Positions 6,298 to 59,140 of a stretch of DNA of 64,000 bases are shown in pieces. The notes beneath the pieces were generated by a model. It did no database searches. It worked only from the letters and a program-made list of their open reading frames with translations, and was not told the origin of the DNA. A program made the position numbers and the translations under genes. This DNA comes from Podarcis liolepis (lineage: Eukaryota): assembly GCA_965112155.1 (NCBI GenBank), contig OZ218106.1; one strand, given 5' to 3'. Within the stretch, counting starts at the first letter, position 1, and every line of letters starts with the position of its first letter.

Positions 6298-7054
6298 TGT
6301 CAGGGCTGCCGCCCAGTCCCAGCTCACATAGGACCAAGTCAGCCAGCGTTCAGTTTCAAAGAGTCTTTATTGGATTACAGGTTCCATTTCCAAACTGCAA
6401 CGTGCAGCCCTACTTCTTCTAGGTCAGAACGACGAAGACCCGTCTGAGTCTCCGCCTCTAGCGCACCAGCTTAATACCCTAGCCTTGCTCCACCTCCTGC
6501 GCCTTTCCTTCCGTCTCTGGGTCCTCCTGCCCCCCTGGGTCTCTCCTTTCCTACTCTCTTCTGGCGCGGACCCCCCTGACCCTTCCGCCTCCTTGCGGCG
6601 GGCTTTGGGACTCGGTTCACTCTCTGGGCTGCTGGCTGCGCCAGCTTCCGTTACATTTGAACTTGGCGCGCGCGCCCAACTCTCCACTTTCCTCTTGATC
6701 GTTTCCTCGCTCCCCGAGGTGGGCGTGACTACTCCTGACTCATGCCCTCCCTCCTTCTGAAAGTCTCCGGAGCCCGATATCTGGTCCCCTTTCTCCCCGC
6801 TGCTCCCGGCTGGGAACGTGGGTCCCGATCTCCAACTGCTGCTTTCTGATCCCTCTCTGGACCCTTTTTCCTGGGGTGTCCCCCTGCTCTCCCCCCTTGC
6901 TCTGGCTGCTGGCGCTCCCTTCTGGGAATCCTCGGACTCGCTAGACAGGCTCGGTGATCTCGGGTCGTCATCCCCACTCATCCTTCCTTTGTATTCCTCC
7001 CCCTCGCTCTCTGTCTCCTCCCTTCTCTGCGTCTCTGCTCCTGAACCCCTGACA
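6298..7054 (-). repeat. Complete 3' LTR (757 bp)
   Basis: TG...CA ends, preceded by the PPT. TATA-like TATTAA at 6471-6476 and AATAAA at 6366-6371 on the minus strand. 6744-7054 is identical to 11506-11816. Confidence 0.93.
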
Positions 7055-10000
7055 TCCATCCCCCCCTCGAAGCCCCCCCTTCCCCCCTCCCCGCTTTCAA
7101 GGGTGGTTGGTGGGTGCTCCGTCATCACGGGAGTGAATGTCGGATACAGTTCGCTCCCCGTTGCTGGCCGCCAACTGAAGACCTCCGAGTCTTCCTCCCC
7201 GCGTTCGTCAACGGTGGTCTCCTCCGCCTCCATCTCGGTGCCGCCGTGCTCGAAACCAAGGTCCTCCCCGCAAACGTCCATGTCCGTCTCTGCGTCTGTC
7301 GCTGGACCTGGTGTCTCCTGCCACTTCCGGCGCCACTGCTCCTCTGGCCGATCGTCCCACCAATACGAGTTGTCGGACGCCGAACCCTCCGGTGACCCCT
7401 CTGGGGAACGTGTGCGCGGTGCGGGTTCCCCTTCCGAGTCGAAGCCATGGAACGTGCTGGAGGAAAGCGTGGGCGTGAACAACCAGTCGTCGAAGAAGCC
7501 CGCTGGCATAGGTCTGTGTGGGAAAAGGGCATGAAACTCATCCTTGAGCAGGGGTTCCTCCAAGGCGTAGTCCGGCACCCAGCTATTAGTACTGGCCCGG
7601 GTGCCCTCCCTTGCTAGTAGATATTCGACTCCGTCTTCCCCCCATCTGGAGTCCAAAATCTCCGTGACTTCGTTGATGGGGTCCTGCTGTGGCAATCTTC
7701 CCACCTCCGTCCGCTCCGGAGACTGACTCGGTGCCGTTCCTGGTTCCTGGAACCTGTGCGGTGCCCTGTAGGGAGTGAGCACCGACCTGTGGAACACCGG
7801 ATGCATCCTGGAACCCTCTGGTAGCACCAGCCGGAAAGCCACCGGGTTGATCTGCGCTTCGACTCTGTATGGACCGAGTTGCTTGTGCCCTAGCTTCCTC
7901 TTGGCTAACGATCGGGTCGGCACCGCGTGGGCTGCCAACCAGACCCAGTCTCCCACTCGGATCTCCTCGCCAACTCGCCTGTGCTTGTCAGCTTGGACCT
8001 TGTATGCGTGCTTCGCCAGCTCCAGCTGCCGTCTGAGTTGATCGTGGACCTCTTGCAACTCAGATGCGAAAGCGTCCGCCGTCTGTGGTTCCCCTTCCCC
8101 CACTCTGTCCAGTCCCGGGAAGGTTCTGGGATTCCTCCCATTGTTGGCGAAGAACGGCGTCACCCCTGTGGATACGTGTTTCGTGTTGTTGTAGGCGAAT
8201 TCGGCGAGCGGCAGGTAATCCACCCACGTCGCCGGCTGTTGATTGGCATAGCATCTCAGGTACTGCTGCATGATGGCATTGACCCTCTCCGCTTGCCCGT
8301 TGGTCTGCGGGTGCCTTGCCGATGTCAGGTTGATCTTGACGTTCAGGAAGCCCATCAGCTTTTGCCAGAAATTCGAGATGAACTGGCGTCCGCGGTCGGA
8401 CAGTATAGACCGTGGCAGCCCGTGCACTTTGAACACGTGATCTATGAACAACTTGGCTGTTTGTTCTGCCGTGGCCACCTTCGCACACGGTATGAAATGT
8501 GCCATCTTGGTGAACAAGTCCACCACCACTAGTACAGCTGTCTTGCCTCTCGAGCTGGGTAGATCCGTGACAAAGTCCAGGGCCACCCTCTCCCATGGTT
8601 CAAACGGCGTTTGCAGCGGTTCCAGCAGTCCCGCCGGTGGTTTGTGCACCGGCTTGGCCCTCTGGCAGGTGTCGCACCTCGCGACGTAGTCCGCGACTTC
8701 CCCCCTCAGTCTGGGCCACCAAAAGTCTCTTGCGACCAATTCCACCGTTTTTTCTGTGCCAAAGTGCCCGGCCGTGGGTGCGTCGTGCAGCTGCTGCAGT
8801 ACCCGGGCGCGAAGTTCGTCTCCCGGCACGTAGACGGCCCCTTTACGTAAGAGCAAGCCGTCTCGTATCTGGAACTCGTCGCCCTTCGCCGTGCCCCTGT
8901 GCACCTCTGCCATCTTCGCCTGCGCGAATGAGTCGTCCGTCAACGCCCTTCGCACCGCATCCAGGTCTACTGTGGCTGAAGCGCACGCCCACGCTGTTGG
9001 CGCGAAGATGTGCATGGCCGCCGCTGGCGTCGCCTCTTCGAGGTACTGCGGTTTTCGGGACAGGGCATCCGCCATGATGTTGGTGTCGCCCGGGACGTAC
9101 TCAATTCGGAAATTGAAGTCAGCAAAGAACTCCGCCCAACGGATCTGCCTCTGGTTCAGGAACCGAGCCGTGCGCCAGTGCTCCAGATTCTTGTGGTCCG
9201 TGCAGACCTGCACCGTGTGCTTGGCGCCGATCAGGAAGTGCCTCCACGCCTTGAAAGCTGCATGAATGGCAAGCAGCTCCCTATCCCAGATGGTGTAGTT
9301 CTGCTCCGACTTGCTGAGCTTTCTGGAGTAGAACGCCCCCGGCCTCCAGACCCCCTGCGGGTCCTTCTGCAGCAGTACCGCTCCCACTGCTCTATCGGAC
9401 GCGTCTGTCTCCACCCTCAGCGGTCTGCTGGGGTCGATATGCAGCAGTTGCTCTTCCGACGCGAAGAGACGCTTGAGTGTCTGAAAGGACCGCTCCGCCT
9501 GCTCCGTCCAGATGAATTTCTTTTTCTTGGAGCTTAGCGTGTCCGTAATAGCTGCCGTCTGCATCGCGAACCCCTTGATGAACTTGCGATAGAAATTGGC
9601 GAATCCGACAAACCTCTGGACCTCTTTCCGGTTGCGCGGGCTCTTCCAATCCAACACCGCACGAACCTTGGCGCTGTCCATGGCTAGCCCCTTGTCCGAC
9701 AGCTTGTAACCCAAGAAATCCACCTCCGTCGTGTCGAACTGGCACTTCTCCAGTTTGGCGTACAGTCTATGCTGCTGCAGCCTCTTCAGCACCTCCCGAA
9801 CGTCCTGGTCGTGTGCTTGCTGCGAGTCAGAGAATATCAGGATGTCATCCAGAAAGCAGACGCACTTCTTGTAGAGGAGCCCCGCCAACACGTGATGCAT
9901 AAAAGCTTGAAAAACGTGGGAGCCATTTTGCAATCCAAAAGGCATAACTCTATATTCGTAGGTGCCCAGAGGCGTGAACATGGCTGTCTTCCACTCATCG

Positions 10001-11097
10001 CCCTCCCTCATACGGATGAGATTGTACGCTCCTCGCAGGTCCAACTTGGTGAACACGCGTCCCTTGCGCACCGTCGCCAGCAGGTCGTCAATCCTGGGCA
10101 TAGGGAAATCGGAGGGCTTGGTCATTCTGTTTAAGAGGCGGTAATCCACGACCAATCTTTTTTGGGGCGTGTCCTTTTTCTTCACGAAGAAAACAGGACT
10201 GCCCCCTACTGCGCTGGACTCCCGGATGAAACCGCGCTGCAAATTGTGATCGATGAACTGTTTGAGTTCCTGTAGTTCGTCCTCAGACATGGAATATAGC
10301 TTTCCCTTCGGCAGCGTCGCCCCTGGCAGGAGGTCAATCTTGCAGTCATATTGCCTGTGCGGTGGTAGCTTGTCTGCCTCTTTCTCGCAGAAGACCTCCA
10401 GAAAGTCCGCGTATTTGTGGGGAACTGCTTGCAACGTTCCCAACTGCAGTTGTGAGTCCTCCTCCTCCCCCTCCTGCCTGGGCAGGATGCAGTGTTCTGC
10501 GCAGTAAGAGGAGCCGAAGATCAGCTGTCTCTGGTACCAAGCCAGCGTTGGACTGTGCCTGTCCAGCCAACTCATGCCCAACACAATGGGCGTGTCCGAC
10601 AGTCGGGTGACATTAAAACTGATGACTTCCCTGTGGTTACCAAGTTGCATCACCATTGGTGGCGTCTGCTTCACCACCTGCCCCCCTAGCAACTCTCTGC
10701 CATCCACTGTGACGACTTGCAGGGGCAGAGTGGCAGGCAGCAGCTTTATAGCGTGCTGCTCCACAAAATCCTGTGCTATAAAGTCTGCGTTGCTTCCAGA
10801 ATCCACAGAAAGCGGCACTTCGATGGTGACTCCATTGGGTAGCTGGAGAGACGCTGTGAGTTGCACTACTGGTTTGGGTGGGAGGGGGTCCGTGGGTTGC
10901 AATATCGCTGGGGACTGCTTCACTGATGCGTCTGGCTGGGCCCCAGTGCCTCTGTCTCCAGCCAGACATCGTCGTTTCCCTGCTGGGCTTCGCTGCATTG
11001 TGTGGCCACTTTCACCGTTGCGGAGGCTGCAGTGTGCTTGGAGCTCCTCTGGGGACACTCTTTCGCCAAGTGTTGAGGGCTCTCGCATATGTAACAC
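6424..11097 (-). CDS. pol: Pol polyprotein (protease, RT, RNase H, integrase, GPY/F, chromodomain, long C-terminal tail); probably expressed from about 10980 by -1 frameshift
   Basis: Uninterrupted 1557-codon ORF. Motifs: VDSGS protease (about 10801), KLDLRGAY / MPFGL / FLDD RT (9844-9855), ETDAS..DHKNL..ADALSR RNase H, HHCC and DFVTD..SDRG..GQAER integrase, GPY (7867-7875), chromodomain-like EILDSR..YLL..NSWVP..EFH (about 7510-7675). Confidence 0.95.
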   Translation of the reverse strand: MLHMREPSTLGERVSPEELQAHCSLRNGESGHTMQRSPAGKRRCLAGDRGTGAQPDASVKQSPAILQPTDPLPPKPVVQLTASLQLPNGVTIEVPLSVDSGSNADFIAQDFVEQHAIKLLPATLPLQVVTVDGRELLGGQVVKQTPPMVMQLGNHREVISFNVTRLSDTPIVLGMSWLDRHSPTLAWYQRQLIFGSSYCAEHCILPRQEGEEEDSQLQLGTLQAVPHKYADFLEVFCEKEADKLPPHRQYDCKIDLLPGATLPKGKLYSMSEDELQELKQFIDHNLQRGFIRESSAVGGSPVFFVKKKDTPQKRLVVDYRLLNRMTKPSDFPMPRIDDLLATVRKGRVFTKLDLRGAYNLIRMREGDEWKTAMFTPLGTYEYRVMPFGLQNGSHVFQAFMHHVLAGLLYKKCVCFLDDILIFSDSQQAHDQDVREVLKRLQQHRLYAKLEKCQFDTTEVDFLGYKLSDKGLAMDSAKVRAVLDWKSPRNRKEVQRFVGFANFYRKFIKGFAMQTAAITDTLSSKKKKFIWTEQAERSFQTLKRLFASEEQLLHIDPSRPLRVETDASDRAVGAVLLQKDPQGVWRPGAFYSRKLSKSEQNYTIWDRELLAIHAAFKAWRHFLIGAKHTVQVCTDHKNLEHWRTARFLNQRQIRWAEFFADFNFRIEYVPGDTNIMADALSRKPQYLEEATPAAAMHIFAPTAWACASATVDLDAVRRALTDDSFAQAKMAEVHRGTAKGDEFQIRDGLLLRKGAVYVPGDELRARVLQQLHDAPTAGHFGTEKTVELVARDFWWPRLRGEVADYVARCDTCQRAKPVHKPPAGLLEPLQTPFEPWERVALDFVTDLPSSRGKTAVLVVVDLFTKMAHFIPCAKVATAEQTAKLFIDHVFKVHGLPRSILSDRGRQFISNFWQKLMGFLNVKINLTSARHPQTNGQAERVNAIMQQYLRCYANQQPATWVDYLPLAEFAYNNTKHVSTGVTPFFANNGRNPRTFPGLDRVGEGEPQTADAFASELQEVHDQLRRQLELAKHAYKVQADKHRRVGEEIRVGDWVWLAAHAVPTRSLAKRKLGHKQLGPYRVEAQINPVAFRLVLPEGSRMHPVFHRSVLTPYRAPHRFQEPGTAPSQSPERTEVGRLPQQDPINEVTEILDSRWGEDGVEYLLAREGTRASTNSWVPDYALEEPLLKDEFHALFPHRPMPAGFFDDWLFTPTLSSSTFHGFDSEGEPAPRTRSPEGSPEGSASDNSYWWDDRPEEQWRRKWQETPGPATDAETDMDVCGEDLGFEHGGTEMEAEETTVDERGEEDSEVFSWRPATGSELYPTFTPVMTEHPPTTLESGEGGRGGFEGGMDVRGSGAETQRREETESEGEEYKGRMSGDDDPRSPSLSSESEDSQKGAPAARARGESRGTPQEKGSREGSESSSWRSGPTFPAGSSGEKGDQISGSGDFQKEGGHESGVVTPTSGSEETIKRKVESWARAPSSNVTEAGAASSPESEPSPKARRKEAEGSGGSAPEESRKGETQGGRRTQRRKERRRRWSKARVLSWCARGGDSDGSSSF
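7055..7092 (-). promoter_or_regulatory. Polypurine tract
   Basis: Minus strand GGGGAGGGGGGAAGGGGGGGCTTCGAGGGGGGGATGGA lies directly 5' of the LTR's TGTCAGG. Confidence 0.85.
10920..10980 (-). promoter_or_regulatory. -1 programmed ribosomal frameshift signal (G GGA AAC plus predicted pseudoknot)
   Basis: Heptamer at 10974-10980 is in the gag frame and pol is in the -1 frame. 6-nt spacer. 10-bp stem GTCTGGCTGG/CCAGCCAGAC (10958-10967 with 10930-10939). Loop CACTG (10944-10948) is complementary to downstream CAGTG (10921-10925). Confidence 0.85.
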
Positions 11098-11505
11098 TTC
11101 CTGGTCCCTCTAGGAGGTTTAGTCTTGACTGCTGTCGGTGCAGAGGCTCTGCTAGCTGACTGAGCCCTGGCGCCTCCCACTTCCATAGGTTCCACTCCCC
11201 CTCCTGGCGGAGGTGTGGATTGCGCACGCGCTGCTTCCCTTGGAACGAAAGAGAAACTTCTCGCTGCTTCGCGCCCTCCACGTCCTTCATCTCTGCACCA
11301 TGGACGTTCTTCCAGCCTCACCCCCACAGTCAGCGCCCTTTGGACCACCTCCTGCGTGCTTCGGGGCCTCTCCCCCCTCGCAATTTCATCCTTCACAGCA
11401 GAGCTGAGACCCTCCCAGAACAGGTCCCTGACTGGGGGCGAGTCCCGGTCCCATTCCAATGCACTGACCAGCGCAAAAAAGCGGGCGTGGTACTGTCGGA
11501 CGCTC
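10920..11505 (-). pseudogene. gag: N-terminally truncated gag (capsid C-terminal part plus CCHC zinc knuckle)
   Basis: Contains SVRQYHARF..L..LEW..LFWEGLSSAVKDEI (retrotransposon gag core), EPMEVG and CYICESPQHLAKEC. It is fused directly to LTR sequence at 11506 with no ATG upstream of the gag core. Confidence 0.9.
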
Positions 11506-11816
11506 GCCCTCCCTCCTTCTGAAAGTCTCCGGAGCCCGATATCTGGTCCCCTTTCTCCCCGCTGCTCCCGGCTGGGAACGTGGGTCCCGATCTCCAACTG
11601 CTGCTTTCTGATCCCTCTCTGGACCCTTTTTCCTGGGGTGTCCCCCTGCTCTCCCCCCTTGCTCTGGCTGCTGGCGCTCCCTTCTGGGAATCCTCGGACT
11701 CGCTAGACAGGCTCGGTGATCTCGGGTCGTCATCCCCACTCATCCTTCCTTTGTATTCCTCCCCCTCGCTCTCTGTCTCCTCCCTTCTCTGCGTCTCTGC
11801 TCCTGAACCCCTGACA
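11506..11816 (-). repeat. Truncated 5' LTR (first 311 bp of U3 only)
   Basis: Identical to 6744-7054. Lacks the TATA, R and U5 portion, and no PBS follows. Confidence 0.93.
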
Positions 11817-22070: not shown

Positions 22071-22191
22071 GATAGGAGTATATCTCCTGAGCTGTGTGTG
22101 TAAGATCCACTCTGAGAAAAATATCTGTAGCCAGAAAAGGAAGTCTCTGAGCTCAGTCTGAAAGGCAGAGATTGGTGTCTTTTTAGGAGTA

Positions 22192-22422
22192 CAGTGGTAC
22201 CTCAGGTTACATACCCTTCAGGTTACAGACTCCGCTAACCCAGAAATATTACCTCGGGTTAAGAACTTTGCTTCAGGATGAGAACAGAAATCGTGCTTCG
22301 GCAGCACAGCAGCAGCAGGAGGCCCCATTAGCTAAAGTGGTGCTTCAGGTGAAGAACAGTTTCAGGTTAAGAACGGACCTCCGGAACGAATTACGGTAAG
22401 TACTTCACCCGAGGTACCACCG
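22192..22422. mobile_element. Tc1/mariner-type MITE (CAGTGGTACC family), copy 1
   Basis: TIR CAGTGGTACCTC..GAGGTACCACCG with TA flanks. Homologous copies at 26716, 51339 and 58192. Confidence 0.85.
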
Positions 22423-25009: not shown

Positions 25010-25338
25010 TAAAAAGGTAAAAGGACCCCTGACCATTAAGTCCAGTCATGACCGACTCTGGGGTTGTGGCGCTCATCTCGCTTTACTGGCCGCGGGAGCC
25101 GGCGTACAGCTTCCGGGTCATGTGGCCAGCATGACTAAGCCACTTCTGGTGAACCAGAGCAGCGCATGGAAACACCGTTTACCTTCCCACCAGAGCGGTA
25201 CCTATTTATCTACTTGCACTTTGAGGTGCTTTCGAAGTGCTAGGTTGGCAGGAGCAGGGACCGAGCAACGGGAGCTCACCCCAGTTGCAGGGATTCGAAC
25301 CGCCGACCTTCTGATCGGCAAGTCCTAGGCTCTGTGGT
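25010..25338 (-). mobile_element. Sauria SINE, 5'-truncated
   Basis: AAAGGTAAAAGGACCCCTGACC tail and body matching the other four copies. B-box GGATTCGAACC present. Confidence 0.9.
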
Positions 25339-26715: not shown

Positions 26716-26956
26716 CAGTGGAACCTCAGGTTACGTACCATCCTCCTTACGAATGCTTCGGGTAATGAGCTCCACTAACCCGAAGTAGATGCTCCTGGTA
26801 GCGAACTTTGCCCCAGGATGCGAGCAGAAGTCATGAGGCAGCGGCACAGTGGCAGTGGGAGGCCCCATTAGCGAAAGCGCGCCTCAGGTTAAGAACGGTT
26901 TCGGGTTAAGAACGGACCTCCGGAACGAATTAAATTCATAACCGGAGGTACCATTG
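26716..26956. mobile_element. Tc1/mariner-type MITE, copy 2 (diverged)
   Basis: CAGTGGAACCTC...GAGGTACCATTG TA. Internal GGTTAAGAACGGACCTCCGGAACGAATTA is shared with copy 1. Confidence 0.8.
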
Positions 26957-27231
26957 TAAAGAGTTAGCTTTGATCCTACCCTTACACCAACTTTCATTAT
27001 TGACACTTGGAAGAAATTCTGCCATTTCCAGTTCTCAACTTAAGTTGACATGCTGCTTTCATCTACCTCTGATCACTAACACCTGTTTGTGAGAAGAACA
27101 ATAGGTGAAAGGAAGCACCACTGCATCAGACTTCTAATGCTAGAATTGTTTTCATTTTGCAAAAAATTGCACTCTTCAAGAAAGCCAAGCAACAGTCCCA
27201 AATATTTCTTTAAAACATCACTGCTAAAGTC

Positions 27232-27812
27232 AGTGTAGTGGCTAGGGTGTCAGATTATGGCCAGGGAGACCAAGGTTTCAATCCTCACTCAACCATGAAA
27301 CTCACTGTGTAACCTTGGGCCAGTCACACAATCTCTCAGTCTAATCCATGCACAGGGTTGTTGGGAGGGTATAAAGGTAAAGGTAAAGGACCCCTGGATG
27401 GTTAAGTCCAGGCAAAGGCAACTATGGCACAGTGGCGCTCATCTCGCTTTCAGGCCAAGGGAGCCAGTGCTTGTTCACAGACAGCTTTCCAGGTCATGTG
27501 GCTAGCATGACTAAACTGCTTCTGGTGCAATGGAACACCGTGACGGAAACCAGTGTGCATGGAAACACCGCTTACATTCCTACCACAGTGGTACCTGTTT
27601 ATCTACTTGCACTGGTGTGCTTTTGAATTGCTAGGTTGGCAGAAGCTGTGACAGAGCAATGGGAGCTTAACCCATCATGTGGATTCAAACCACTGAACCT
27701 CCGATCGCAAGCCCAAGAGGGCTAAGTGGTTTAGATCATAGAACAACCCGCTCCCCTTTGGGAGGGTATAAAATGGGGTAGAGGAACTCTGAAGAAAGGA
27801 CAATAAAATAAT
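27232..27812 (+). mobile_element. Older tRNA-derived SINE, split by a Sauria SINE insertion
   Basis: A-box AGTGTAGTGG, B-box GGTTTCAATCC, body ACCTTGGGCCAGTCAC..CACAGGGTTGTT. The element resumes at 27758. Confidence 0.65.
27376..27757 (-). mobile_element. Sauria SINE (subfamily shared with 44304)
   Basis: Full length, with 15-bp TSD TTGGGAGGGTATAAA at 27361-27375 and 27758-27772. Confidence 0.92.
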
Positions 27813-37780: not shown

Positions 37781-38132
37781 AGGGGTGCGGGTGGTGCTTT
37801 GGGTTAAACCACAGAGCCTAGGGCTTGCCGATCAGAAGGTCGGCAGTTTGAATCCCCACAATGGGATGAGCGCCCATTGCTCAGTCCCTGCTCCTGCCAA
37901 CCTAGCAGTTCGAAAGCATGCAGTGCAAGCAGATAAATAGGTACCGCTCCAACGGGAAGGTAAAAGGCATTTCCGTGCGCTGCTCTGGTTCACCAGAAGC
38001 GGCTTAGTCATGCTGGCCACATGACCGAGAAGTTGTATGCCAGCCCCCTCGGTCAGTAAAGCGAGATGAGCTCTGCAACCCGAGTCATCCGCGACTGGAC
38101 CTAATGGTCAGGGGTCCCTTTACCTTTACCTT
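37781..38132 (+). mobile_element. Sauria SINE
   Basis: tRNA head, TCCCTTTACCTTTACCTT tail, TSD TATATTTATATA at 37769-37780 and 38133-38144. Confidence 0.92.
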
Positions 38133-38389
38133 TATATTTATATAGTCTTATCCATAGTTATGCAGTTACCCATCAAACCACATGTGGTGCATTTGCTCAA
38201 ACATTTCCTATAAAACAATCCTCTATTCCCATGGAGAACAATACTGTTACCCACTCTGCTGCCTACAGGATTAGCGTGAGCATGCCTCTGAATAGCAGTT
38301 GTTGGACAACAACATTGGGGAAGTCTATTTATCTCACAAACTTCCTATAGGCATCTTAATGGCCACCATGTTAGAAGATTCAGGACAAA

Positions 38390-38870: not shown

Positions 38871-39358
38871 TGTCAGGGACTGGACTGAAGAGGAATGGTG
38901 GAGGCCGCCTCCTCCCCCCAACCTTCACAAGAAGAGGAGGACAGTATAGGTTTACAACGGTAGTTTGCAGAAAGTCACGAGTCTGAGACAGAAGAAGGAC
39001 AGAGCTGGGAGATAATGGAAGGGGAGGAGGGGGAAGGAGCAGAGCCAGAACAGCTGGCTAACATGTTATCATTAGAAAGCATTCCTGATCCCCCTTCTCC
39101 TAAAACCAGGAGGGCTGTGAAAGTGGAAGAGCAGAAAGCGAACAGACAAAGGGCCTTACGCAGCCACTGTAGAAGGGGTGACACTGCAGATGACGTAGAA
39201 TAAAGGGGGGGGAGATTACTCGGAGCAACGCCATTGATTAATTACATTCCTTTCTCTCTCTCTGTAAATTCTGAATAAATTATGTGGTAAGGACTCTTCT
39301 TGTTACCTACTTTTTTTGCTGCCACCAGAGGAGGGGAAGGATTCTCTGAGCCTTGACT
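38871..39358 (+). mobile_element. Solo LTR of a second Gypsy family (488 bp)
   Basis: Begins TGTCAGGG, like the chromovirus LTR, and ends CCTTGACT (degenerate). 5-bp TSD TAGCA at 38866-38870 and 39359-39363. AATAAA at 39274-39279. Confidence 0.82.
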
Positions 39359-44303: not shown

Positions 44304-44680
44304 AAAAAGGGTAAAGGACCCCTGGGTGGTTAAGTCCAGTCAAAGGCAACTATGGGATTGCGGCGCTCATCTCGCTTTCAGGATGAGGGAGCCAGTGTTT
44401 GTCCACAGACAGCTTTCCTGGTCATGTGGCCAGCATGACTAAACTGCTTCTGGTGCAACAATACGCCGTGATGAGTGCCAGAGCGCACAGAAATACCATT
44501 TACTTTCCCGCCGCAGTGGTATCTATCTACTTGCACTGGTGTGTGTTTGAACTGCTAGGTTGGCAGAAGCTGGGACAGGGCAATGGGAGCTCACCCTGTC
44601 GTGCAGATTCGAACCACCGACCTTCCAATCTGCAAAGCCAAGAGGTTCAGTGGTTCAGACCACAGCACCACCTGCTCCCC
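44304..44680 (-). mobile_element. Sauria SINE
   Basis: Full length. TSD core CATAGTTGTA at 44294-44303 and 44683-44692. Confidence 0.9.
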
Positions 44681-49662: not shown

Positions 49663-51338
49663 TTCTAAGATACACTGAATATATCAGTTGAGAAGGAACC
49701 AGGAGAGCATGGGAGCTGGGAAGGAGGGGGAATTAGCATTTTCAAGCACATAGCAGCTTGTAGTAGTAACCTGCAGGACAGATTAGAGTGAGAGTGGAGA
49801 TATATGTGCTACGAGGTTAGAAAACACAATTTCCTGAATTGCAGAATTGACAGGAAATTAACATTTCCCCCCATTTTCCAGCCCCCCACCCCCTTATAAA
49901 ATACTCAGGGTCAGCACTGGCAACCCCAAACCTGATCTCTCTTGCGCTACAAAAACACAGGAAGCTGCCTTCTCTTCTCCTAGGTATGCCTATTAGTCCA
50001 TCTAGCCCAGAATTGTCTACTCTGCTTGACAGAGCCTCCCCAGGGGTCTCAAAGGTCTTTCCTGCTACCGCTTTCTTTTAGCACAGCAGGGAAAGGCCTC
50101 AAAGGAGTTGGGTTGGAAAGCGGGGAAAGCCCAACATTGATTCCCCCCCCCCCGGTTCCACCCTCCTGAAACTCTACTCTCAATGAGGCCAGAACAAGAC
50201 TACAAGGCTCCTATTCCAGGGTGGTTGTGAGATAGCAACGGCCTGACGCAAAGCCGAATAGCCTCTCCACAACCAAATATGGATGCTCAACAAAAAGGTC
50301 ATCTGGAAGCAACCTTGAATGCAAAAAAGCATTTAACACCCCTTGTAATTTGGCACTGAGTTTTACCCCTAAAAGGTTTAAAGAGCTTGAGCAAGGAGCA
50401 TAGAAAAGGAAGCTGGCTGGCGTGTGAAAGTCTATGCTTTTTTTAAAGCTATGACTCCACCTAGCTCTAGCCACTCCTAGCCACAACTGGGCAAGCTACA
50501 GGGTGGGGCCATTTTGGATTTCCTTTCCTTCAAAGGAAGCAGTGTATAGAAGCAGTGGGCTTTAAGCTTTCCAGTCTGTGCAAGGGACATTCTGAGCTGC
50601 CCTAGCCATTTGTCTGAATCTAAGAGAACGTGGGAGGGCAGGGGTGCATTTATTTGAGCTGCACTAGAACCAGTAGCGACTCCCAAAGCAGCTAGGGAGA
50701 CAGCTTGCCATAGTTTTTAGCACCCCTGTGAGTTGTAAACATGGCTATTGTCAAACCGGCATCTGTTTAGGGCTGCCCCGAGTCGCCCGGCAATTTACTG
50801 TGACAACTTCATGGCAGTGTTAGAAACTGGGATAGACAAGCTAGGAGCCAAATGGCTTCTAGGACCTGGGTTGTGGGCACCAAAAAGAATGTCTAGTGGT
50901 GGCTACTGGGGGGGGGGGCAACACTTTTTTTATATAAGCATGAACTAATACACAGTTCACATAAGTGACACATTGTTAATATCTCATTTTTTAGCAGAGA
51001 TTTTTTATACATGTACTGTACTTCAGTTTTCCAAACACTCTACTCTTTATTGTTAAACTCCTTTTTACCCGTTTACCTTTACTTCAAGACTTCAAAGCCC
51101 ATGCATTTCAGTAATCCCTGAGTGTCAGCCAGGCGCAAAAAATTGCATCCAGACTTTTCGTGTTGTTCACAAATCAAGAATCTTTAAGCGCAAATGCACT
51201 TGGTGCCTTGCTAATTTTGAACCCTGCTTCAAGGTGAGTTCTGGCACCTATTTTTCTTGAGGGTGGGGAAGCACTGGGAAGGACAGATTGAAAGATTAGT
51301 CTGTTGGAATGAAGGTCCATTGTTAGTGGAGAAGGATA

Positions 51339-51580
51339 CAGTGGTACTTTGGGTTACATACGCTTCAGGCTACATATGCTTCAGGTTACAGACTCCGCAA
51401 ACCCAGAAATATTACCTCAGGTTAAGAACTTTGCTTCAGGATGAGAACAGAAATCGTGTGCCAGCGGCGCGGCAGCTGCAGGAGGCCCCATTAGGTAAAG
51501 TGGTGCTTCAGGTTAAGTACAGTTTCAGGTTAAGAACGGACCTCCAGAATGAATTAAGTACTTAACCCAAGGTACCACTG
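51339..51580. mobile_element. Tc1/mariner-type MITE, copy 3
   Basis: TA CAGTGGTAC...GGTACCACTG TA, highly similar to the copies at 22192 and 58192. Confidence 0.88.
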
Positions 51581-53262
51581 TATTATATATGCTATTTGGG
51601 ACCTTGCTAAACTATTTATTTCTGGAGACCAGTCACTGGCACTTGTTTTCCCTTGGAGTCATATGTGGGGAAACCAAGGAAATACCTTCTTCGCGTGCTT
51701 TGCTCTCTCCCTGAAACTGATTCAGCATTCTCTGTGGCTATTCTTTCAGTGTGTGCGTGACATGGGGTAGAGAGTAAATCAGATGAATCAAGTGACTGCT
51801 TCACAGCTAGCAGAAAGTCTGCTCTTACAAATGGCCTTTCACAACCCTTCACATTCCAGCTACCAAAATTACTTTGCTGCATGTTTTACAAGAGAAATCA
51901 CTTACCAACAGGGATCTCCCTGTCACGCCATGCCAAGTTGTTGGCTATAATTTTATATAAAACATGTCCATAATAAATGTTATTACTGTGTCTATTAAAA
52001 ACTTTCCACTGGAAAAACTAATTATGAAGTGCACAACTGTTTAAAAGATTCAGTATTACATTTGCATTTACAGAAACGCCTTCTCTGTTGCCACAAGCCA
52101 GTCTAATAAATTGGCAGTCTTAGGTTCAGCTCACACTCAGCAGCTGGGTTGATGGAATAACACACAGAGAAAAAACCCTCCCTCCCTCATCATAATAAGC
52201 AGTTTGTTGGCTGGCCCAGTAGGTAGACCAATGACTACTACAGAGCATGAATTAACCTCAGTACTAGAGCCTCTTATTCCAGAACATGACTCAGGCATGC
52301 TGGAAAAATGGTAGGTGGAAATTTACTCTATTCTCATGCCCCAGTTTTGCTAAAAAGTATTTGAGCATATATCCAGTTCTATGTGAGGTCTGGCTCATAT
52401 AAATGTGTTCTCCAGTACATTTTAACTTGATATTAAATAAGCAGTTTTTGTATATAATTCATCTACCACACAAGCCTGAGGTGACAGCTGCAATGGAAGT
52501 GTATATGTGGTTCTCAGGTTCATATACAGGAACTTTACCAGACCTAAGTCTGCTTAGCTTCAACAAGGTGGTGGCTTCATGCACCTTTAGACCATACTGT
52601 GGGATGAGTCAAGTGCCTCTCCACCCTCTCACTCCCGAGGCCAACATAGCTCAGACACAACATGGAATGCCCCTAGCTTAGACATAAAAACTAACATTTG
52701 ATGGTGACACTAATAAAAACAATAATAAAGAAGTATGTTCCATGACTCCCAAAAAGTCACTGCAGGAAAACAGAGGAGCATTTATAGAAAGCAAAGCAAT
52801 TAAACTAGTAACATTTCTGAGACATTTAAATGACAGATGGCCTAATCTGTAACCTAGTTCAGTTGGATTTCAGCCCACTTAGTCCCATGGGATGTTGTTG
52901 AAGATAAATCAAACATTTTTAGTATTTTTTTTCTGGAATGAAAAAATCAACCCTGCTCAAAGTGTATACTACAAAGGGTTTCTTGAAACAACCAGCTTTT
53001 TCTTTTGATAACAAAACCAAGAAACTTTGGTGAACATTGGGAGGGAGGGGGTCATGTATAGTGACACCAAGTATCAAAACTAAGCTTGAATCTGCATTCT
53101 AATCTCCATTCAGAACTCCATTTTTGAGAATGTAAATGACATACTATGTTGCAAATCAATGGAACATTGATAAAAGTGAATGAAACAAATAATATAACCC
53201 CAAACATAGGTTAAACTGCAAACCTAGTATTCCAAAGTAGTCTTTACTGAAACCTATGGAGA

Positions 53263-56619: not shown

Positions 56620-56978
56620 AGGGACGTGGGTGGCACTGTGGGTTAAACCACAGAGCCTAGGACTTGCCGATCAGAAGGTCAGCGGTTCGAATCCCCACGA
56701 CGGGATGAGCTCCCGTTGCTCGGTCCCTGCTCCTGCCAACCTAGCAGTTCGAAAGCACGTCAAAGTGCAAGTAGATAAATAGGTATTTATCTCCAGCGGG
56801 AAGGTAAACGGCGTTTCTGTGCGCTGCTCTGGTTCACCAGAAGCGACTTAGTCATGCTGGCCACATGACCTGGAAGCTGTACGCTGGCTCCCTCGGCCAA
56901 TAAAGTGAGATGAGCGCCGCAACCCCAGAGTCAGTCACGACTGGACTTAATGGTCAGGGGTCCCTTTACCTTTACCTT
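56620..56978 (+). mobile_element. Sauria SINE
   Basis: Full length, B-box GGTTCGAATCC. TSD TAAGGAGAGGGGG at 56607-56619 and 56979-56991. Confidence 0.93.
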
Positions 56979-58048
56979 TAAGGAGAGGGGGGGAGTGCTT
57001 AACACTAAGAACCCTAACAACACAGAAAACCATCTTAAATTAAGACAGACCATTTTTGCCCATCTAGCTCAGTACACTGAGTGGCAACAGCTCTCCACGA
57101 TTCAGGCAGGAGTTTCCCCCAGCCCTTAGACCTTCTGTATGCAAAGCATGTACTCTGTCATTGAGCTCCAGCCTTTCCCTGCCTGTCACCTCTTCTCTCC
57201 AAATCTGCCAAAGCACCTCCCCATCCCAACAGAATTCCAAATGTAGGTAAAGAAAGCTGTGTGTTACGGGCACTTGTTTCCATTAGATTTTTAAGCCAAC
57301 AACATGCAGCTTGATTCAACAAGGGATCAAAGGGCTTGTGTGCCTCATCTGCCAGCATAAGAGATTGCTGCCCACAGATAATATTCCCGCATCAAGCTCT
57401 CTGTGAGTTCCCACACCTAAGCCAACAATCCACAAGCACAACAGCAAATTGTCGCAATAAATCACTATTGTTTGTAGATGGTGTTTTGTTTATAAGGCAT
57501 CTCTAAAGATAGAAGTCTTCGTTAATGACCATTTAGTGCATGCATTCTTCAGGATGCCTTTTCACTATAACTACACGTGCTTACTATATGATCCACAAAT
57601 CAAAATAATTCCAAACATTACTGGTACAGCTTCTTGTTGGCTACATGCATTCAACGTAAGAAAATCTGCATAGCTAACACTGGCATACACCATGTTGAAA
57701 TAATGCCATTCTATTCCCGACCGTGTAGTGTAGTATCAAAGGCATGGGCATAATTGAAATACTGTAGTCTGTGTACTAAAGCTTCTAAATACCTCCATAT
57801 AAAATTACAGTTATGGCATGTTGACGAGCCACCTGTTGGGCTGAAGAAAAACTGTGCAACACTGTGCCCTTGTGAGGCCACCTTTCCCCGCGTGTCTTTG
57901 TGAAGCCTTTCTTGCAAAGCTCTTTTTCTATCCGAAAGTCCTGTGTTGGGAGGTGTAAAATGTCTGTAGCTTTGTGTCACAGAGGTGTGGAGCAACTCAG
58001 CGCCAGACATAGCTGCTCCTTTCCTCAGACATAACAAGATAATATAAG

Positions 58049-59140
58049 CAGTGGCGTAGGAAGGGTGGTGCGGTGGGTGTGGTCCGCCCTGGGTGTCATC
58101 ACTGAGCAGGGGTTGACAAAATGGCAAAAATATGTGGGTTTTTTATAATAAAAAATTGGGCTCATGACACTTTTTAAAAAAAATTGTATTACAGTGGTAC
58201 CTTGGGTTACATACGCTTCAGGTTACAGATGTTTCAGGTTACAGACTCCACTAGCCCAGAAATAGTACCTCAGGTTAAGAACTTTACTTCAGGATGAGAA
58301 CAGAAATCGTGCTCCGGCGGCCTGGCGGCAGCGGGAGGCCCCATTAGCTAAAGTGGTGCTTCAGGTTAAGAACAGTTTCAGGTTAAGAACGGACCTCTGG
58401 AATGAATTAAGTACTTAACCCAAGGTACCACTGTAATTAAAACGCGTTTAATAGCTTCGTCTGACAATTAACCTCAACAAGTCAACATAATACGTATTGA
58501 AACTTTTTAGTTCAGTCAACAAACTCAACGAAACGTGGATGAACTCGATGCTGTATAGTGGAGAGCGTATGGATAGGGAAAGGGGGGGGGTTTCTTTCCG
58601 CCGATTCACTGAAGTCTGTCTCTGCAGTTTGTACTCGAGCGAGACGTAAGCAACTGGTGACTCATCATCACTCAACCCGCAACCAATCCTATCCGCTGCC
58701 ATGCCTGTCAGTCACCCCACGTCATTCTGTGGAGATAGTTGTGCATTATTACTGAAGCTTATAAGTTCTGTGCTGAATTTATTTTTCTTACATTTTTTAG
58801 TTTATTGATTCATTGTGATCATCCTCTTCTCTATGATATTGAGTTTGGTAAGTAACATAAACATTATGATCATGCTATTTGTTTGTATTTGTACGTTAAG
58901 CCAAAGCTTCAAAATAGCGAAATTAAGTTAAAAATTTAATTCATAAGAAATTTCCATTGCAAAAAAAGGTTTTAAGTGCTTATGCTCAAAATGTTAAGTA
59001 AATAAACCAGAAAATAATACTTGCAAATGTAAGTATCTTGTTTTTGTAAGTATCTTGTTTTTCCTTCTTTTAATAATTTCAGTGTGGGGGTGACAAGAAA
59101 TTTTCCGTACCGGGTACCACTTGACCTTGCTATGCCACTG
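58049..59140. mobile_element. Non-autonomous hAT element (about 1.1 kb) with a nested MITE
   Basis: TIR CAGTGGCGTAG / CTATGCCACTG. The first ~75 bp resemble the start of the 30008 element. TSD decayed (5/8). Confidence 0.72.
58192..58433. mobile_element. Tc1/mariner-type MITE, copy 4, nested in the hAT element
   Basis: TA CAGTGGTACCTTGGGTTA...TAACCCAAGGTACCACTG TA. Confidence 0.9.

Follow-up and report, generated by a model that had tools for sequence, protein, structure and literature searches.

A 64,000-nt stretch of DNA from the lizard Podarcis liolepis (GenBank assembly GCA_965112155.1, contig OZ218106.1; hereafter, the window) carries a copy of a Ty3/gypsy chromovirus whose pol frame runs on past the integrase chromodomain, through the polypurine tract (PPT) and for 209 codons into the element's 3′ long terminal repeat (LTR), a read-through that is a trait of the family. 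The chromodomain has no aromatic methyl-lysine cage, and the tail directly behind it begins with a candidate for the motif by which host proteins bind LEDGF/p75 or HRP2. We propose, with a probability of roughly 0.5, that targeting has moved in this family from methyl-lysine reading to a LEDGF/HRP2-type tether, while the LTR-coded part of the tail adds basic nuclear-import clusters.

Pol Reads through the Polypurine Tract into the 3′ LTR

The features that define the read-through are listed below; positions are those of the window.

6298..11816, minus strand: 5′-deleted Ty3/gypsy chromovirus copy, delimited by its domains and by the target-site duplication (TSD) GATGG at 11821-11817 and 6297-6293
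6424..11109, minus strand: pol frame, 1561 aa with no internal stop, encoding protease, reverse transcriptase (RT), RNase H, integrase, SH3 domain, chromodomain and a 364-aa tail
7055..7431, minus strand: tail before the LTR, acidic and disordered, with a second aromatic helix (YWWD...WRRKW) and, at its end, the G-rich PPT translated as GGRGGFEGGMD
6298..7054, minus strand: 3′ LTR, 757 bp, TG...CA, with U3 at about 7054-6446 and R from about 6445
6427..7053, minus strand: the 209 LTR-coded codons, with a Ser/Glu/Gly-rich acidic first part and the basic clusters KRKV (6696-6685), KARRK and RRTQRRKERRRRW (6528-6490)

Pfam matched protease, RT, RNase H, integrase and SH3 domains in the pol frame, the SH3 domain being of the Tf2 type; this order of the catalytic domains, the flanking LTRs and the TSD are those of a Ty3/gypsy chromovirus. 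A preliminary description of the window had claimed that pol stays open through the PPT and then from LTR base 2 (7053) to a stop at 6426-6424, with about 360 aa following the chromodomain. Both claims hold: the tail measures 364 aa, of which 209 are LTR-coded. The peptide PSPKARR (6615-6595) and the arginine cluster pointed out in the same place are present in this copy, and RVLSW is indeed encoded over the TATA-like box TATTAA (6476-6471).

When the same 627 nt are read in the two alternative frames, 4 and 7 stops appear. Dinucleotide shuffles kept the frame open in 43 of 5000 cases and any frame in 120 of 5000, so the open frame goes beyond what composition predicts. These numbers bear on the possibility that the frame is open simply because U3 is rich in purines and poor in T and the copy very young. 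U3 does contain only 10% T, and a copy with identical 311-nt LTR remnants had no time for decay; but the composition-keeping shuffles and the closed alternative frames speak otherwise, as do subfamilies at 73% and 52% identity that keep both the frame and its end. This explanation is already largely refuted, and we give it hardly any weight.

The LTR-coded part is acidic at first and turns basic toward the C-terminus, with a net charge of +9 over pol residues 1528-1557. No Pfam family, CHZ included, matched the tail at E 1. In a low-confidence structure prediction of the SH3 domain plus tail (four sequences, mean pLDDT 37), the tail came out as disordered, and the top score of an ESM Atlas search (0.84) is a lead at most. 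An antisense stop-free frame of 257 codons (6761-7534, plus strand) overlaps the tail and is probably a shadow of the sense frame.

The Frame Is Retained in Diverged Relatives

One further feature dates the copy.

11506..11816, minus strand: 5′ LTR remnant, 311 nt, fused to gag across a short common stretch (about 11514-11506)

The remnant matches the opening 311 nt of the 3′ LTR without a difference, and the copy is therefore very young. Its own open frame for this reason proves little, and the relatives decide. Thirty-seven family proteins, the named ones from Podarcis muralis and P. lilfordi, were examined; as gene models and contig calls, recruited in part through their tail, they do not amount to a census of copies. 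The G-rich tract or LTR peptide is reached by 21 of the 37, and 13 of these 21 share the C-terminus of the window copy. The preliminary description had named stops right after the chromodomain in relatives as an observation that would speak against a read-through. Instead, frame and end point survive in both diverged subfamilies (73% and 52% identity): 153 of the 209 LTR-coded residues are identical between the window copy and P0003, and 108 of 209 (52%) between the window copy and P0008, with five gaps that are all of whole codons. P0013 of P. lilfordi has a C-terminal end of the P0008 type. Under a neutral model at 50-55% identity, which corresponds to P0008, 4.8-6.1 stops are expected and the probability of an open frame is 0.002-0.007, while at 73% identity it is 0.03-0.05; the model is a simple one, seeded from the window sequence and ignoring CpG effects and ascertainment. 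Judged by these sequences, LTR read-through is a trait of the family. Of the 743 variable sites in the mapped sequencing runs, 40 were listed, 5 of them in the tail; four small 3′ LTR indels among the listed sites form +1/-1 pairs 6 nt apart.

Retention of a frame could have causes other than a working protein. The part of the tail before the LTR might act as protein while the LTR codons are a run-on tolerated for RNA reasons (a stop near the poly(A) site, a short 3′ untranslated region), with the att site, the promoter, the TATA box and the self-primer accounting for their apparent conservation. Predicted to be disordered, the central LTR-coded stretch shares just 28 of 70 residues with P0008, the end peptide lies over TATTAA and the self-primer, and the length of the run-on varies widely among relatives, from about 20 to more than 200 aa. 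But the KRKV, RAPSSN and KARR blocks survive at about 50% overall identity, and the acidic-then-basic order with a closing basic cluster recurs in P0011, P0012, P0016 and P0024, whose tails cannot be aligned with that of the window copy. We consider a mere run-on improbable.

A Chromodomain without an Aromatic Cage

7519..7680, minus strand: chromodomain fold with N, R and T at the three cage positions, identified by a profile match to HP1alpha and an AlphaFold model

The window chromodomain had no match to Pfam Chromo at E 0.1. A family profile matches HP1alpha with an E of 0.001, the cage aromatics aligning to N, R and T, and an AlphaFold model built from 60 sequences has the chromodomain fold, with a pLDDT of about 90 over the domain. 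Structure matches to this model were chromodomains throughout among the matches listed (best E 0.0035). A chromodomain at the integrase C-terminus, as expected of a chromovirus, is thus in place, and the relatives P0011, P0012 and P0019 score above the Pfam Chromo cut-off. The three cage aromatics of a type I chromodomain are missing: in six family rows compared, none of the three was found in five and one of three in the sixth. These three residues recognise methylated H3K9, and plant type II domains are without the first and third (PMC3059260, PMC3605345). Because all three are replaced in the window copy, methyl-lysine reading has probably been lost in the chromodomain of this family.

A Candidate LEDGF/HRP2-Binding Motif Follows the Chromodomain

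7432..7497, minus strand: candidate TND-interacting motif (TIM), with the helix FFDDWLF, an 8-residue S/T linker, FxGF at 7452-7441 and an acidic flank

The TND is the TFIIS N-terminal-type domain, also called IBD, of LEDGF/p75 or HRP2. Its ligand is described as a helix followed by an 8-16-residue linker rich in D/E or phospho-S/T and by FxGF, essential in all known LEDGF/HRP2 partners (PMC9987994). The upstream helix has a conserved Phe, while the site of HIV integrase is pre-arranged instead (PMC10854676); Drosophila JIL-1 has DFxGFDE (10.1101/624023). LEDGF tethers lentiviruses to H3K36me3 chromatin (PMC5053271).

The block in the window copy lies directly 3′ of the chromodomain and upstream of the PPT and is not LTR-coded. 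FxGF stands behind a linker, and a short hydrophobic helix in a disordered region is predicted in front of it, the AlphaFold model having a short helix on FFDDW (pLDDT about 60) and coil afterwards. A helix, 8 residues and FxGF, with H, Q or R as the middle residue, are present in 22 of the 23 family proteins that cover the block. The motif block matches the chromodomain in its degree of conservation: 23 of its 29 residues are identical between P0008 and the window copy, the figure for the chromodomain is 36 of 50, and of the 97 aligned residues that come next 42 are identical.

More distant relatives were collected with a profile built from the window family, run against 1.84 billion representatives; the best 150 of 3156 matches were examined. 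Among these, the same layout with mostly acidic linkers recurs in P0011, P0012 and P. muralis P0019, whose tails can barely be aligned: a Phe, 8-10 mostly acidic residues and FxGF, located 19-20 or 66 residues past the chromodomain. P0011 carries one such motif, FESDENEDTDFLGF, and P0012 carries two, FATTDEEEEDFVGF and FESTDDDSSSFRGF; Zootoca P0028 has an LxGF form 70 residues past the chromodomain. In P0011 and P0012, a G-rich peptide is followed by DV, as at the LTR start of the window copy, and a basic cluster with LLCWKR stands at the end; their terminal part is probably LTR-coded as well. A motif serving as a structural extension of the chromodomain was considered and dropped, given that its distance varies (19-20 or 66-70 residues among relatives). 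A second conserved aromatic block, YWWD...PEE.W.RKW followed by GE..[G/E]FEH, was noted at about 7370-7250 (minus strand); it sits near the slot of the distal motif in P0011, P0012 and P0028 and may be a decayed second motif.

A tree was made from the 139 of 156 proteins with a usable SH3-chromodomain segment (the 17 dropped include P0008 and P0019); its named rows are all from vertebrates. Each of the nine pattern-bearing rows has no more than one cage aromatic, and all nine fall on one branch (SH-aLRT 99), where they are joined by P0028 and by P0009, which is out of frame at the motif. Among the 124 rows that retain two or three cage aromatics, none has the pattern, nor does any of the 128 rows off the branch, whose 9566 tail residues contain one bare FxGF. 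Shuffled tails yield the pattern with a P of 0.001-0.003.

Several observations weigh against a tail that would act as a LEDGF/HRP2 tether. The linker of the window family has 8 residues, five of them S/T and none D/E, whereas those of P0011, P0012 and P0019 are acidic and 8-10 residues long; being also devoid of a plain CK2 site, it fits a TIM only if phosphorylated. Searches of solved-structure sequences with the motif region, with a four-row motif profile and with P0012 retrieved no TIM complex. Seven of the nine pattern rows are near-copies from one family, leaving about three independent lineages, and the pattern was defined after the data had been seen, on a quick tree of 142 columns and with a family-derived profile. 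In 54 of the 128 other rows the tail has 30 residues or fewer and no room for a motif, and four off-branch rows have lost the cage and yet have no motif. Finally, eight of the 21 LTR-reaching family proteins, themselves gene models, stop early or switch frame.

The tail could also be a selected protein module whose aromatic-acidic motif binds another partner (TFIIS, IWS1, an activator-binding surface of a transcription factor, or histones), with the LTR-coded acidic-basic part as the main import or chromatin module. The non-acidic linker would suit this, as would the basic clusters kept by P0008 and P0013 despite divergence, and Vipera and Rhineura elements with an intact cage and no FxGF nevertheless have acidic-to-basic tails of 100-119 aa. 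However, tails that otherwise cannot be aligned share an FxGF preceded by a Phe at a distance of 9-11 residues, the literature gives FxGF as the hallmark of LEDGF/HRP2 partners (PMC9987994), and the Pfam search at E 1, in which CHZ was included, matched nothing in the tail. On balance we find a different partner rather unlikely.

The LTR Probably Doubles as Promoter, Primer and Coding Sequence

6471..6476, minus strand: TATA-like box TATTAA, 31 nt upstream of the inferred start site, translated within VLS
6435..6445, minus strand: putative self-primer, formed by the first 11 nt of R and sharing sequence with the last pol codons
6366..6371, minus strand: poly(A) signal AATAAA, 53 nt past the stop codon

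In Tf1/sushi elements, reverse transcription is self-primed, with R beginning at the self-primer (10.1101/2022.12.06.519325; PMC6317226). In one contig of a sibling copy, and in this contig only, an 11-nt complement of positions 6445-6435 lies directly beyond the LTR end; the window copy has lost the region. The chance of such a complement anywhere in the LTR is about 0.001, and lower at this exact place. Through this contig, the element has the self-priming signal expected of the Tf1/sushi group (V-clade). Since the self-primer marks the start of R, the start site can be placed 31 nt after TATTAA. The pol frame fits within the full-length RNA, because it takes in all of U3 plus roughly six codons of R and its stop precedes AATAAA by 53 nt. 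The last pol codons overlap the putative start site and primer at 6445-6435 (minus strand).

The dual-function LTR of the preliminary description, promoter and coding sequence in one, is supported by frame retention in the diverged subfamilies and by the positions mapped for the TATA box, the start site and the poly(A) signal. The end peptides VLSW and DSDG require no explanation at the protein level, since the DNA encoding them also contains the TATA box and the self-primer. The motif SxCxRG, to which the same description had drawn attention, did not hold up at the protein level: its counterparts in relatives are NWCRGG, SWCTGG and LCWKRR, and in the window copy it is encoded over TATA-like DNA. 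Neither is PSPK[AT]RR a family motif, as Ser occurs in none of 18 pattern-matched relatives (17 read PGPKA.. and one PGAKARR); at position 6612 another base dominates the read depth in all four mapped runs, so PSPK is private to the window copy.

A Model of Integration Targeting

In the proposed model, Gag-Pol would be produced by a -1 frameshift from the full-length RNA and, as the 3′ end of this RNA holds U3 and R, the LTR codons would be translated as part of Pol. If the tail stays on the integrase after processing, the integrase would end in a chromodomain with a dead cage, followed by a LEDGF/HRP2-type motif, an acidic spacer and the LTR-coded basic clusters. The FxGF motif would bind the TND of LEDGF/p75 or HRP2. 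Both proteins read H3K36me2/3 through their PWWP domains, and the integration complex would thus be tethered to transcribed chromatin, a substitute for the methyl-lysine pocket that was lost. Nuclear import or DNA contact may be the role of the basic clusters coded by the LTR, and the final pol peptide would be shaped by the TATA box and self-primer beneath it. The binding partner and the resulting targeting, like translation of the LTR codons and retention of the tail, are best regarded as proposed steps read from the sequence. A nuclear or chromatin-targeting role, which the preliminary description assigned to the LTR-supplied tail, is plausible; the supply is not as envisaged, since the best-conserved candidate motif lies upstream of the PPT.

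More tentatively, and at somewhat less than even odds, a history can be suggested in which a squamate lineage let its heterochromatin-type chromodomain pocket decay, gained one or two host-mimicking TIMs recruiting LEDGF/HRP2 and so reached the lentiviral tether independently by mimicry, with phosphorylation as a switch and a promoter LTR doubling as the gene for the tail's nuclear-import end.

To our knowledge, tethering by LEDGF is held to be peculiar to lentiviruses, and little has been learned about how vertebrate LTR retrotransposons choose their insertion sites. The full-text literature searched, which leaves out most subscription journals, contained no description of this lizard lineage, of an LTR-coded tail in it or of FxGF on a retrotransposon integrase. 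The lacertid lizard family is young and abundant and combines a cage-dead chromodomain with a LEDGF-type candidate motif; in its LTR, one stretch would be promoter, self-primer and coding sequence at once, a vertebrate parallel to the plant CRM elements. If the model is correct, a 25-residue motif peptide should bind the LEDGF/HRP2 domain, and the lizard assemblies already available should show an excess of the family's insertions in transcribed gene bodies.

Comparison with Known Systems

The element resembles Tf1/sushi-type chromoviruses in its Ty3/gypsy domain order, the SH3 domain and chromodomain at the integrase end, the 5-bp duplication and the self-priming signal, and its nearest named relatives are from lizards, snakes, amphibians and fish. 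It differs from them in the lost cage, the FxGF motif, the 209 LTR codons and the length of its tail, 364 aa against a median of 44 aa in 128 others, a set that includes chimeric gene models and probably fungi. That vertebrate pol normally ends soon after the chromodomain, as had been stated beforehand, agrees with this median but not with fish-type, viper and worm-lizard proteins, which run further. Labeo and Cirrhinus proteins extend 18-24 aa past the G-rich tract, and Vipera latastei P0016 (119 aa) and Rhineura floridana P0024 (100 aa) have acidic-to-basic tails with the cage intact and no FxGF. The window read-through is unusual only in its length. P0016 and P0024, with tails that begin at DSV, make up another squamate group, in which reading through the LTR may have arisen separately. 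The fish-type integrases P0026, P0029, P0046, P0078 and P0109 end in GRGRP, a G-rich tract and about 20 residues closing with SPE[YF] or similar; the GRGRP peptide is presumably AT-hook-like.

The pol of plant CRM group A and of some beet elements also reaches into the 3′ LTR (PMC3059260, PMC3605345). In CRM group A, an LTR-coded CR motif replaces the chromodomain and priming is by tRNA-Met (same sources), whereas the window element retains a cage-dead chromodomain, has its candidate motif before the PPT, would be self-primed and has lizard relatives. The likeness to CRM elements, drawn by comparison, is one of analogy and not of membership.

With the TIM, or IBM, of the LEDGF/HRP2 partners MLL1, JPO2, IWS1 and Drosophila JIL-1 (PMC9987994, PMC10854676, 10.1101/624023), the candidate shares disorder, a Phe helix, a linker of 8-10 residues, FxGF and acidic flanks, and the relative P0012, like TIM proteins, has two motif copies. 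Unlike the known TIMs, it lies on the integrase of a mobile element, and in the window family its linker is rich in S/T instead of being acidic; the searches matched it to no solved TIM complex. If the proposal is right, the element would share with lentiviral integrases (PMC5053271, PMC10854676) the host tether and insertion into transcribed H3K36me3 chromatin, but where HIV integrase uses a pre-arranged folded surface, it would use a disordered motif of the host type.

Remaining Features of the Element and the Window

10920..11514, minus strand: 3′ part of gag with a CCHC zinc knuckle, in -1 frame overlap with pol
38871..39358, plus strand: decayed solo LTR of another family, 488 bp, TSD TAGCA

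In contigs from other copies, gag can be traced up to 11514. The window copy is non-autonomous, because its 5′ promoter, primer site and gag start are gone. At the LTR/gag junction of the 5′ deletion (11514-11506, minus strand), about 9 nt are in common, as template switching or microhomology repair would leave. Frameshifting in the -1 direction follows a slippery-site rule, and a heptamer G GGA AAC in the right phase of the gag frame is found at 10980-10974 (minus strand). It is followed by a stem-loop, the two spanning 10980-10929 (minus strand); the 76-nt stretch folds at -27.5 kcal/mol (z -1.9), and 7 of 200 shuffles were equally good. Together, heptamer and stem-loop are likely the -1 frameshift signal linking gag to pol.

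Of 24 listed sequencing runs, 20, from 9 studies, contain the window stretch wholly or partly. One RNA run gave 418 aligned reads on both strands, mostly less than 90% alike, which provided no start or end sites. Searches for DNA of relatives produced 78 and 37 pattern matches in metagenome contigs, none of them confirmed; in viral contigs no such DNA was found either.

The solo LTR had been presented as independent support with the same architecture, which did not stand up: read from LTR base 2, its frame closes after just 25 codons. An acidic-to-basic piece with PSPKTRR and SHCRRG exists in a different frame, behind a stop. Its best E against the window tail is 0.88, which is not significant; in that frame it has no significant similarity to 191 stored proteins, and none of 61 database candidates proved to be a relative. 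Out of frame and without significant similarity to the tail, it was set aside as support; it may be the decayed LTR of a distant family sharing the read-through habit. The base-2 frame of the solo LTR begins with a Trp/Glu-rich peptide, its 3′ end is TGACT, not TGACA, and the acidic-to-basic piece terminates on AATAAA at 39199.

Two families of dispersed short repeats were also seen in the window, one at 22174-22419, 26803-26959, 51337-51582 and 58190-58435 and the other at 25011-25338, 27377-27706, 37781-38134, 44305-44630 and 56620-56980; we take them to resemble a lizard DNA-transposon remnant and a squamate short interspersed element, respectively.

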